Source: an uncultured Verrucomicrobiae bacterium
GTDB taxonomy: Bacteria; Chlamydiota; Chlamydiia; Chlamydiales; Rhabdochlamydiaceae
Reading direction: 5' to 3'
Assembly (NCBI GenBank): GCA_963731265.1
Contig: CAVSUE010000001.1
Coordinates: 1,088,001-1,152,000, forward strand
DNA length: 64,000 bases
Below are positions 32,876 to 33,140 of this stretch, one piece after another. The position numbers were made by a program, and so were the translations under genes. Within the stretch, counting starts at the first letter, position 1, and every line of letters begins with the position of its first letter. The notes under the pieces are model-generated. The model saw nothing but the letters and a program-made list of their open reading frames with translations, was not told the DNA's origin and did no database searches.

Positions 32876-32904
32876 TTGACTTAAGGGTAAGTTATTGTTA
32901 TAAT
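32876..32904 (+). promoter_or_regulatory. Near-consensus sigma70/66 promoter of the aro/phe/tyr operon
   Basis: TTGACT-N17-TATAAT with extended -10 TG. Confidence 0.8.
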
Positions 32905-32913
32905 GGAGCCATT

Positions 32914-33015
32914 ATGAAAACACAAGACAGAACCACACCTGCGCTTGAAATTGGCCGAGGGGCACCTCTCTTGGTCAATCGTTATTTCTTTTCTTACTTC
33001 TATTTTGGCGCATAG
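32914..33015 (+). CDS. Phe/Tyr-rich leader peptide (33 aa)
   Basis: MKTQDRTTPALEIGRGAPLLVNRYFFSYFYFGA*: 7 of 8 consecutive codons are Phe/Tyr; lies between the promoter and aroF. Confidence 0.8.
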   Translation: MKTQDRTTPALEIGRGAPLLVNRYFFSYFYFGA

Positions 33016-33140
33016 CCGCCAATATACCTTTTTATCCTCTTACATTCGCTCGTTACCTTGGAAACCCTGAAAAAGGGTCCGGACCTCTTTTTTGAAGAGG
33101 AAAAACGAATTAAATATAAACTTTTGGATATAAGGTATTT
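33005..33140 (+). promoter_or_regulatory. Putative attenuator RNA region
   Basis: ttggcg/cgccaa hairpin over the leader stop; aaaaagggt-ccgg-acctctttttt terminator-like stem; 33024-33037 complementary to the aroF RBS region. Confidence 0.6.

Follow-up and report, generated by a model that had tools for sequence, protein, structure and literature searches.

A candidate Phe/Tyr-sensing leader peptide, conserved and apparently lacking a conserved terminator, upstream of a chlamydial aromatic amino acid operon

Introduction

Does a short open reading frame (ORF) rich in phenylalanine and tyrosine codons, lying between a promoter and aroF in a chlamydial genome, sense the supply of these two amino acids, and if so, how does it act on the genes behind it? 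The locus belongs to a stretch of 64,000 nucleotides (nt), here called the window, from an uncultured member of the Rhabdochlamydiaceae (GenBank assembly GCA_963731265.1, contig CAVSUE010000001.1, positions 1,088,001 to 1,152,000; the positions below count from the first letter of the window). In it, aroF, which encodes a 3-deoxy-D-arabinoheptulosonate 7-phosphate (DAHP) synthase, heads a nine-gene aromatic operon on one strand that runs through 41328. A preliminary description of this DNA had read the ORF as a dual Phe and Tyr sensor that acts by transcription termination, by sequestration of the aroF ribosome-binding site (RBS), or by both. Judging from sequence and modelled RNA folds, we conclude that the element is very probably a leader-peptide attenuator sensing the supply of Phe-tRNA and Tyr-tRNA. 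The fuller statement, in which it is a ribosome-mediated attenuator of the whole aroF–chorismate mutase–pheA–tyrA–aminotransferase–aroB–aroA–aroK–aroC operon and works by the mechanism proposed below, is one that we favour with less assurance. The output is likely to be translational and/or Rho-dependent, and not a textbook terminator switch.

Results

An aromatic leader ORF between a promoter and aroF

We recovered the architecture given in the preliminary description: a near-perfect promoter, a 33-codon ORF ending in YFFSYFYFGA and a stop codon, and a gap of 125 nt between that stop and the aroF ATG (33141). The upstream ORF (uORF) lies on the operon strand between the promoter and the biosynthetic genes, as expected of the leader-peptide attenuator class, and the C terminus of its peptide reads RYFFSYFYFGA. 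Four Phe and three Tyr codons are found among its last ten sense codons (7/10 aromatic), from which dual sensing of Phe and Tyr appears plausible. When all six frames of the 2.34-Mb genome were surveyed (3.44 million windows), 8-residue windows with at least seven Phe or Tyr residues occurred in only 13 stop-to-stop frames, the leader ORF included. A second aromatic window, at C1:1806851 on the minus strand, was rejected because it had neither a hairpin nor a downstream gene. Beyond its UAG, the leader frame is free of stops for 80 codons (33016–33258, plus strand), crossing the aroF start in another frame; this long stop-free stretch is probably an effect of composition.

The promoter (32876–32904) was the top scorer among 12 promoter-like sites in 31000–42600, and shuffled versions of this region held 10.6 ± 4.0 promoter-like sites scoring at least 9/12. 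The ATG of the leader ORF is found 9 nt past the −10 box, and the 5′ untranslated region (UTR) would be ~3 nt long if the transcript starts ~7 nt past that box. The near-leaderless start suggested beforehand recurs in relatives, as a 5′ UTR of 0–4 nt was predicted in 9 of 41 leaders, with several lineages represented.

Hereafter, G000 is the genome of this window, other G numbers are related genomes and L numbers are leader loci. G000, G003 and L050 lack ~27 nt of the 5′ UTR (AAAAGAAGGCAA-N-UUGCGUUUUU) that most relatives possess (32905–32913 compared with L003–L013). They also lack UGCCGUUCUU ahead of the aromatic codons, a potential partner of that 5′ UTR segment, and this joint loss suggests a helix between the two. 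In relatives, the duplex between the 5′ UTR (AAGAAGGCA) and UGCCGUUCUU reached −8 kcal/mol or lower in 21 of 32 cases but z ≤ −2 in only 4 of 32, and the pairing is a weak, lineage-limited feature.

Conservation and distribution of the leader

Conservation of F/Y-rich uORFs ahead of orthologous operons had been proposed as a check on the preliminary description, and we found it at every locus. A search for AroF across 41 related genomes yielded orthologues (63–97% identity) with upstream DNA in 13 other genomes; two further AroF fragments in G004, located at contig ends, were left out of the resulting set of 14 loci, which includes our own. All 14 carried a uORF with an aromatic run and Gly-Ala, together with the hairpin over its stop, and all 14 had a TTGACA-17/18-TATAAT-like promoter at the same place.

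The leader is not confined to this set; in all, four additional chlamydial families have it. A covariance model of the core (R1) matched 8 of 151 genomes of the order under strict filters. The seven matched genomes besides G000 represent three other families (f10, f24 and f43), and the uORF was present in all seven; six of the seven matches precede a gene with an aroF start of the MLI(K/T/N)L type, and no such gene follows L037. An exact-pattern scan of 185,579 species genomes returned 70 loci, of which 34, judged by inspecting the table, have a short aromatic uORF ending in FYFGA. These comprise 25 of chlamydia type (10 of them duplicating loci already collected) and nine in records titled Acidobacteriota, where the core of FYFGA, stop and hairpin lies upstream of pheA genes for chorismate mutase–prephenate dehydratase (CM-PDT). 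The remaining 36 loci lie inside long ORFs or lack a start; from the table alone, we judge them to be chance matches. In chlamydial lineages, the leader was also found ahead of genes for a short DAHP synthase, chorismate mutase and a class IV aminotransferase, and its context was always that of Phe/Tyr pathway genes (aroF, chorismate mutase, CM-PDT or class IV aminotransferase).

As the preliminary description had supposed, the leader is unannotated. No Rfam leader family matched at E ≤ 10 in 32000–34000, where only two chance matches to eukaryotic or enterobacterial models appeared, and none matched at E ≤ 1 across 12 related loci.

Several public records of metagenome-assembled genomes (L041, L050, L051, L067, L069, L070, L082, L100 and L106) are titled 'Verrucomicrobia' or 'Acidobacteriota'. 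The leaders of these nine records are identical or nearly identical to those of genomes placed in the chlamydial genus or order of G000, and their title-level taxonomy looks unreliable.

Coding signature of the leader and the hairpin over its stop

We then compared 44 distinct leaders. The 14 orthologous loci and the seven model matches among them were unselected and the pattern matches were chosen for an aromatic uORF; owing to this partial selection, the 44-leader statistics describe the family and do not test it. The frame is open through 21 different peptide lengths (19–43 residues plus one of 92), and the two alternative frames hold stops in 39 and 26 of the 44 leaders. Within the aromatic block, A occupies codon position 2 in 123 of 141 cases. 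This bias is a coding signal, because it is predicted by Tyr codons and not by a mere pyrimidine tract. Phe accounts for 37% and Tyr for 27% of the ten residues before the Gly codon (64% together), and the four codons immediately preceding it are all aromatic in 40 leaders. Gly-Ala follows the aromatic run in 41 leaders; the stop comes directly after Gly-Ala in 36 and 5–8 codons past the Gly codon in the other eight. The upstream aromatic codons drift by synonymous and F/Y/S changes with their composition retained, and conservation between families does not extend to the N-terminal two thirds of the peptide.

The hairpin over the stop codon, previously placed at 33005–33022, is present and conserved. 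With its A-U extension (33001–33026), it folds at −7.8 kcal/mol (z −2.1; equalled by 12 of 200 shuffles), and it was the sole helix that RNAalifold returned on an alignment of 13 leaders. The 3′ part of the leader region was too variable for alignment with MAFFT. In a stop-hairpin alignment of 49 rows, four of which are reverse-strand matches of the palindrome, 92.5% of cells were paired and double changes occurred in 4 of 7 pairs (46 distinct rows). The hairpin inside the leader ORF (32950–32979) has a folding energy of −16.1 kcal/mol (z −4.4; 0 of 200 shuffles as good), and relatives have a hairpin of different sequence at the same place, as read from the alignments with no formal count. At this internal hairpin, L012 (positions 1010–1503; genome G018) has an insertion of ~170 nt with long inverted repeats in the leader ORF. 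The insertion does not interrupt the frame, and the resulting ORF of 92 codons retains the ending SYFYFYFGA and a stop.

These patterns bear on an explanation that dispenses with a hungry-codon sensor altogether. The element might instead be a protein-binding site, in the form of either a structured RNA or a DNA palindrome; it might encode a functional small protein; or its peptide might arrest the ribosome at the stop codon in response to free Phe or Tyr, on the model of the arrest peptides TnaC and SpeFL. Such a site would account for a core, UUCUAUUUUGGCGCC-UAR-GCGCC, that is an inverted repeat conserved at synonymous sites across two phyla, and for the spacer motifs CUUACAUC, CAGAUCC and CACAUUC, for which we found no pairing partner; the near invariance of FYFGA and stop likewise fits this explanation. 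However, the variation of the upstream aromatic codons at constant composition, the placement of A at codon position 2 and the lack of conservation in the N-terminal two thirds of the peptide all argue against it. Stops that lie 5–8 codons past the Gly codon in eight leaders, instead of 2, are unlike a stop-codon arrest, and arrest by ligand would turn on a biosynthetic operon at times of ample product. We therefore regard this explanation as very unlikely.

No conserved terminator or antiterminator

In its textbook form, transcription attenuation at this locus would use the stem at 33070–33093 as an intrinsic terminator, and stalling would favour a competing antiterminator fold. The preliminary description had drawn such a stem with a U run, and the parts can indeed be found: an A run, a stem and U6 at 33069–33093, and complementarity of UCCUCUU (33035–33041) or CCUCUU (33084–33089) with AAGAGG (33095–33101), as it had pointed out. 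Yet the stem (−6.9 kcal/mol, z −0.05) is no better than shuffles, 82 of 200 of which were as good. In context, it is outcompeted by the hairpins at 33058–33082 and 33084–33100 (−16.6 kcal/mol), it was absent from the list of a terminator scan, and its U run is interrupted in G003, the closest relative (aroF 97% identical). The inner stem of hairpin 33058–33082 covaries, with 4 of 4 pairs double-changed and 72% of cells pairing in a model-fitted alignment, and hairpin 33084–33100 is retained in G003 through a change from U-A to U-G. Across the family, three leaders (L005, L012 and L077) do carry a hairpin followed by a U run after the stop hairpin and ahead of aroF, but the other 38 of 41 do not. 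Thus, the intrinsic terminator that leader-peptide attenuators are expected to have behind the uORF and ahead of the first structural gene was not found. The 3′ arm of the stop hairpin, which a stalled ribosome would free, had no conserved downstream partner (mean z 0.05; z ≤ −2 in 1 of 41 leaders); an antiterminator or anti-sequestor made from the freed strand, the other expected component, was likewise not found. A partner of this arm in G000, CUAUUGGCGC at +36 in aroF (−12.0 kcal/mol), was unconserved and was rejected. Together, these results make classical attenuation quite unlikely.

A different use of termination would need no antiterminator. The stop hairpin together with UACCUUUUU could be a weak intrinsic terminator or pause site that the stalled ribosome blocks directly, in the manner of ampC and pyrBI, which are said to be ribosome-occluded attenuators. 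The terminator scan listed 33005–33022 with the tail TATACCTTTT as terminator-like, and the stop hairpin passed the same loose rule in 20 of 41 leaders, including all of the closest subgroup of G000. The geometry also fits, given that 40 of 44 leaders have only aromatic codons in the four positions preceding the GC core. In addition, the polymerase could pause at the upstream hairpin and the U-rich codons behind it, which would let the ribosome catch up. On the other hand, 21 of 41 leaders (L051, L098 and L073, for example) have no U-rich tail after the hairpin, the U run begins 6–7 nt past the GC core, and a ribosome translating normally would also be expected to cover the 5′ arm. The direction would also be wrong for a biosynthetic operon, because the simplest timing would give read-through at plenty, and a stall at the first aromatic codons would bring termination. 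We consider direct occlusion of this kind unlikely.

Pairing of the aroF Shine–Dalgarno region with leader RNA

The preliminary description had also proposed sequestration of the aroF RBS by leader RNA. Here the pairing itself stood, whereas its release by stalling in G000 did not. The duplex between 33024–33037 and 33126–33138, which contains the Shine–Dalgarno (SD) sequence of aroF, has an energy of −13.1 kcal/mol and stands out from shuffled SD regions (z −3.8). The closest subgroup (L002, L013 and L077) conserves this pairing, and remnants of it are seen in L050 and L067. In the minimum-energy fold, the aroF SD is paired with leader RNA, as in translational attenuation of the erm/cat or LEU-element type.

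Pairing of this kind is widespread in the family. Among 41 leaders, 32 had an SD duplex of −8 kcal/mol or lower with the aromatic codons or with the 30 nt past the hairpin, and z was ≤ −2 in 20; the partner was the aromatic codons in 19 and the 30 nt past the hairpin in 21. Of 41 relatives, 12 have the aromatic codons themselves paired with the SD region. These codons form 12–17 pairs with it in L043, L049, L051, L089 and L098 (z −2.3 to −4.6), and the corresponding duplex in G000 reaches only −6.2 kcal/mol (z −1.2). We modelled ribosome stalls as constraints on equilibrium thermodynamic folds. In the subset in which codons pair with the SD, a modelled stall increased SD accessibility two- to fivefold (L098, from 0.20 to 0.53; L051, from 0.10 to 0.37).

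The spacer behind the stop hairpin has a distinctive composition. Averaged over 41 leaders, its first 45 nt contain 12.9 C and 2.7 G, and windows of such composition make up 1.2–1.6% of the G000 genome. A rho gene is encoded in G000, and a C-rich, G-poor stretch after a uORF in a genome with rho resembles the tnaC/speFL type, by composition only. The spacer also holds a conserved motif, at 33035–33046 and at the same place in all relatives, which reads CUUACAUC(C/U)G, CUAUCAGAUC(C/U) or CCCAGAUCC; its form in Acidobacteriota is CACAUUC. The 5′ half of the leader ORF contains a similar ACCACAUC(C/U)G.

Two other routes from stall to output were tried and rejected. A relay through the purine-rich segment 33093–33105 pairs with the aromatic codons at −9.4 kcal/mol but appears in no modelled fold. 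For a hungry-codon frameshift through the SD helix, the −1 frame was open past +40 nt in 40 of 44 leaders and the +1 frame in 32 of 44, and the median stops of the two frames were alike (62 and 61 nt); frameshifting is without specific support because both frames behave as expected of pyrimidine-rich RNA.

Proposed mechanism and the evidence against it

The ORF, its conservation and coding signature, the stop hairpin, the SD pairing, the spacer composition and the lack of a classical terminator and antiterminator are observed features of this family. From them, we infer translation of the uORF, stalling, the way in which expression responds and, most of all, the output step. In the mechanism that we propose, the strong promoter would yield a transcript that is almost leaderless, and ribosomes would translate its first 33 codons. 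A shortage of Phe-tRNA or Tyr-tRNA would make the ribosome dwell among the last ten sense codons. A ribosome shields ~12–15 nt 3′ of its A site, and a pause on any of the last four aromatic codons, immediately ahead of GGC-GCA, should therefore hold the 5′ arm of the stop hairpin, as those codons form or abut it. The paused ribosome would thereby keep the hairpin open. If no ribosome pauses, the stop hairpin would form and the aroF SD would be paired with pyrimidine-rich leader RNA, which is the segment just 3′ of the hairpin in G000 and the aromatic codons themselves in many relatives. In this masked state, the operon would be poorly translated, and Rho would probably end its transcript prematurely through the long C-rich, G-poor spacer. 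Expression would thus rise on stalling, in many relatives by direct uncovering of the SD.

Several results weigh against this mechanism, in addition to the partial selection of the leaders mentioned above. The SD pairing in G000 is only moderately unusual, as 2.4% of random genome 26-mers and 3.2% of regions upstream of long ORFs pair as strongly. When the RNA was folded with ribosome-footprint constraints, as the preliminary description had suggested, stalls on the aromatic codons did not open the RBS pairing of G000: in the thermodynamic model, the SD helix persisted with the ribosome on Y24, F26, Y28, F29 or F31, and the unpaired probability of the SD region was 0.37 in the free RNA and 0.37, 0.22 and 0.31 in stalled states. 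It rose only with the ribosome at the stop codon (0.47). Across 41 leaders, a stall on the last aromatic codon increased accessibility in 18, decreased it in 8 and left the rest unchanged. As for Rho, G-poor, C/U-rich RNA is also expected of an anti-SD strand, so the composition is no proof of a Rho site, and the spacer would lie outside the footprint of a ribosome on the aromatic codons. For the particular arrangement of G000, the models gave no route from a stall on these codons to an open SD. Finally, two public metatranscriptome runs yielded a single contig of 195 nt, at 33200–33394 inside aroF, with none over the leader. A third public run, of unknown kind, gave short pieces of relatives (<95% likeness), also with none over the leader.

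The operon and its surroundings

The coordinates of the leader features and of the genes around them are collected in Table 1. The aroF product has an N-terminal extension, and the divergent neighbour on the other side of the promoter is an aroD–aroE fusion.

Table 1 Features of the leader and the aromatic operon in the window
Feature	Position	Strand	Evidence or remark
Divergent aroD–aroE fusion (dehydroquinase and shikimate dehydrogenase)	31347–32876	−	Longest frame begins inside the −35 box
Sigma-70-type promoter: TTGACT (32876–32881), 17 nt, TG-extended TATAAT (32899–32904)	32876–32904	+	11/12 match
Leader ORF, 33 codons plus UAG, MKTQDRTTPALEIGRGAPLLVNRYFFSYFYFGA and stop	32914–33015	+	ORF translation; conserved in relatives
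Hairpin inside the leader ORF, with U-rich aromatic codons directly after (candidate pause hairpin)	32950–32979	+	13 pairs
Aromatic codon run Y F F S Y F Y F (UAU UUC UUU UCU UAC UUC UAU UUU), presumed sensor	32983–33006	+	Translation; 44-leader statistics
Stop hairpin: GC core 33005–33022, UAG (33013–33015) in the loop, 5′ arm formed by the last Tyr-Phe-Gly-Ala codons	33001–33026	+	
C-rich, G-poor spacer (12 C and 4 G in 45 nt) with the conserved motif CCUCUUACAUUC	33023–33067	+	
Anti-Shine–Dalgarno segment AUACCUUUUUAUCC, pairing with 33126–33138	33024–33037	+	Minimum-energy fold
Hairpin with A-rich loop (UUGGA-CCCU-GAAAA-AGGG-UCCGG)	33058–33082	+	Fold
Hairpin CCUCUU-UUUUG-AAGAGG, SD-like purine arm	33084–33100	+	Fold
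aroF ribosome-binding region, GGAUAUAAGGUAUUU plus AUG	33126–33143	+	AAGGU motif 4–6 nt ahead of the start in orthologous loci
aroF, DAHP synthase with N-terminal extension of ~80 residues	33141–34154	+	PF00793, 1.3e-81, residues 81–325
Chorismate mutase	Within 34061–34423, start uncertain	+	Pfam CM_2
pheA, prephenate dehydratase with ACT domain	34420–35226	+	Pfam PDT and ACT
tyrA, prephenate dehydrogenase	35210–35992	+	Pfam PDH_N/C
Class I/II aminotransferase	35989–37131	+	Pfam Aminotran_1_2
aroB	37128–38243	+	Pfam DHQ_synthase
aroA	38392–39678	+	Pfam EPSP_synthase
aroK	39675–40214	+	Pfam SKI
aroC	40207–41328	+	Pfam Chorismate_synt

Three related loci, L050, L067 and L037, retain the leader, the hairpin and part of the RBS region with aroF missing downstream, and L050 and L067 have truncated pathway genes there. 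This loss of aroF behind retained leaders looks like operon erosion in some relatives.

G000 encodes a second DAHP synthase, 48% identical to AroF, at 63775–64000 on the minus strand and beyond the window (G000:C1:1151775–1152632). It begins right after an ORF that resembles tryptophan synthase alpha, as judged from the translation, and would be an isoenzyme linked to a trp operon and without a leader of its own.

The same genome also has a second match to the R1 model, L039 (G000:C1:663962–664086, plus strand; 40 bits). Its uORF ends in SSFFFVFILLLFVP, and the loop of a GC hairpin contains the stop; CUCACAUC and a U-rich spacer come next. The match is located directly upstream of a gene for a 297-residue protein of the mitochondrial carrier family (PF00153, 8e-11). 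L039 may be a Phe-sensing leader for a carrier.

Discussion

The leader belongs to a conserved family that is apparently undescribed and very probably represents a known kind of switch. Going by the sequences compared here, its core is strikingly conserved across two phyla and is joined to an unusual expression platform that has no terminator. This core (aromatic run, Gly-Ala, stop in a GC hairpin) is searchable, is not in Rfam and marks Phe/Tyr genes in two phyla, and it is therefore a possible annotation model. If our reading is true, this would be, as far as the literature searched shows, the first description of a Phe/Tyr-sensing leader peptide from Chlamydiota, and environmental chlamydiae that still make aromatic amino acids would gauge their supply through tRNA charging.

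Comparison with known systems

In Escherichia coli, pheL–pheA is controlled by attenuation through a leader peptide with Phe codons. The present family resembles this system (Rfam Phe_leader RF01859; PMC3082878) in placing a Phe codon run before a Phe-pathway gene, which in the Acidobacteriota members is CM-PDT. Unlike pheL–pheA, the chlamydial leader gives no match to RF01859, has no terminator/antiterminator pair and alternates Tyr with Phe codons.

A closer parallel with respect to the gene controlled is the aroR leader of Corynebacterium glutamicum, whose Phe-Tyr-Phe run responds to limitation for Phe and not for Tyr (Neshat et al. 2014, as summarised in PMC11802643; PMC4046766, excerpts). 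Both are short leader ORFs directly upstream of aroF, and induction by stalling under Phe limitation is the mode of action that the available passages ascribe to aroR (PMC11802643, PMC4046766). The two occur in different phyla, and aroR is described in these passages as a transcription attenuator, whereas no conserved terminator was found here, a comparison made by description only. The run of the chlamydial family is also longer than the Phe-Tyr-Phe reported in those excerpts, with 4–9 aromatic codons, and it is fused to the stop-codon hairpin. Similarly, the uORFC-13-1 motif upstream of aroF in Acholeplasma has been proposed to be a ribosome-mediated attenuator, and in the available text it shares with our locus a promoter, a short uORF with Phe codons (there derived from a U run) and aroF downstream (PMC8632094). 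By contrast, and as far as a comparison by description goes, what looks like an intrinsic terminator follows that motif, which occurs only in Acholeplasma and environmental sequences (PMC8632094).

Within the phylum, leader-peptide attenuation has been proposed for trpRBA of Chlamydia trachomatis and C. felis, with trpL candidates (PMC3937554, PMC7755916, available sections). The Phe/Tyr family resembles trpL in this proposal and in the phylum. It differs in that trpL, as presented in these sections, has Trp codons, precedes another operon and belongs to Chlamydiaceae; the two have no shared sequence features, and the Phe/Tyr family is found in environmental chlamydial lineages. The preliminary description knew only of a Trp leader in chlamydiae, and our searches agree within their coverage: the full-text literature searched contained Trp leaders and no chlamydial Phe/Tyr leader, which does not exclude papers beyond it or preprint supplements.

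With respect to output, the pairing of aromatic codons with the SD in L043, L049, L051, L089, L098 and others is reminiscent of the actinobacterial LEU element upstream of leuA, in which a run of regulatory codons is proposed, by an unproven mechanism, to pair with the SD (PMC1262725). The LEU element uses Leu codons, unlike the Phe/Tyr codons here, and the SD partner in G000 is the segment past the hairpin and not the codon run.

The lack of an intrinsic terminator, the presence of rho and the C-rich, G-poor stretch adjoining the end of the uORF are features shared with the Rho control of E. coli tna (TnaC) and speF (SpeFL). TnaC and SpeFL sense a free ligand, arrest the ribosome at or near the stop codon and control catabolic operons. 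Unlike in these systems, the operon here is biosynthetic, its signal would be hungry codons, and the position of the stop varies. It is possible, although we put this forward only tentatively, that the leaders form a starvation-sensing family spanning Chlamydiota and Acidobacteriota that works without terminator and antiterminator, its codons and fused stop hairpin masking the SD and/or forming one half of a split Rho-loading site that the paused ribosome removes. Being free of terminators, the family lends itself well to studying how leader peptides might act in non-classical ways, whether through masking of the SD by regulatory codons or through Rho. If the version with a split Rho site is true, it would be the hungry-codon counterpart of Rho antitermination of the TnaC/SpeFL type, often on leaderless transcripts.

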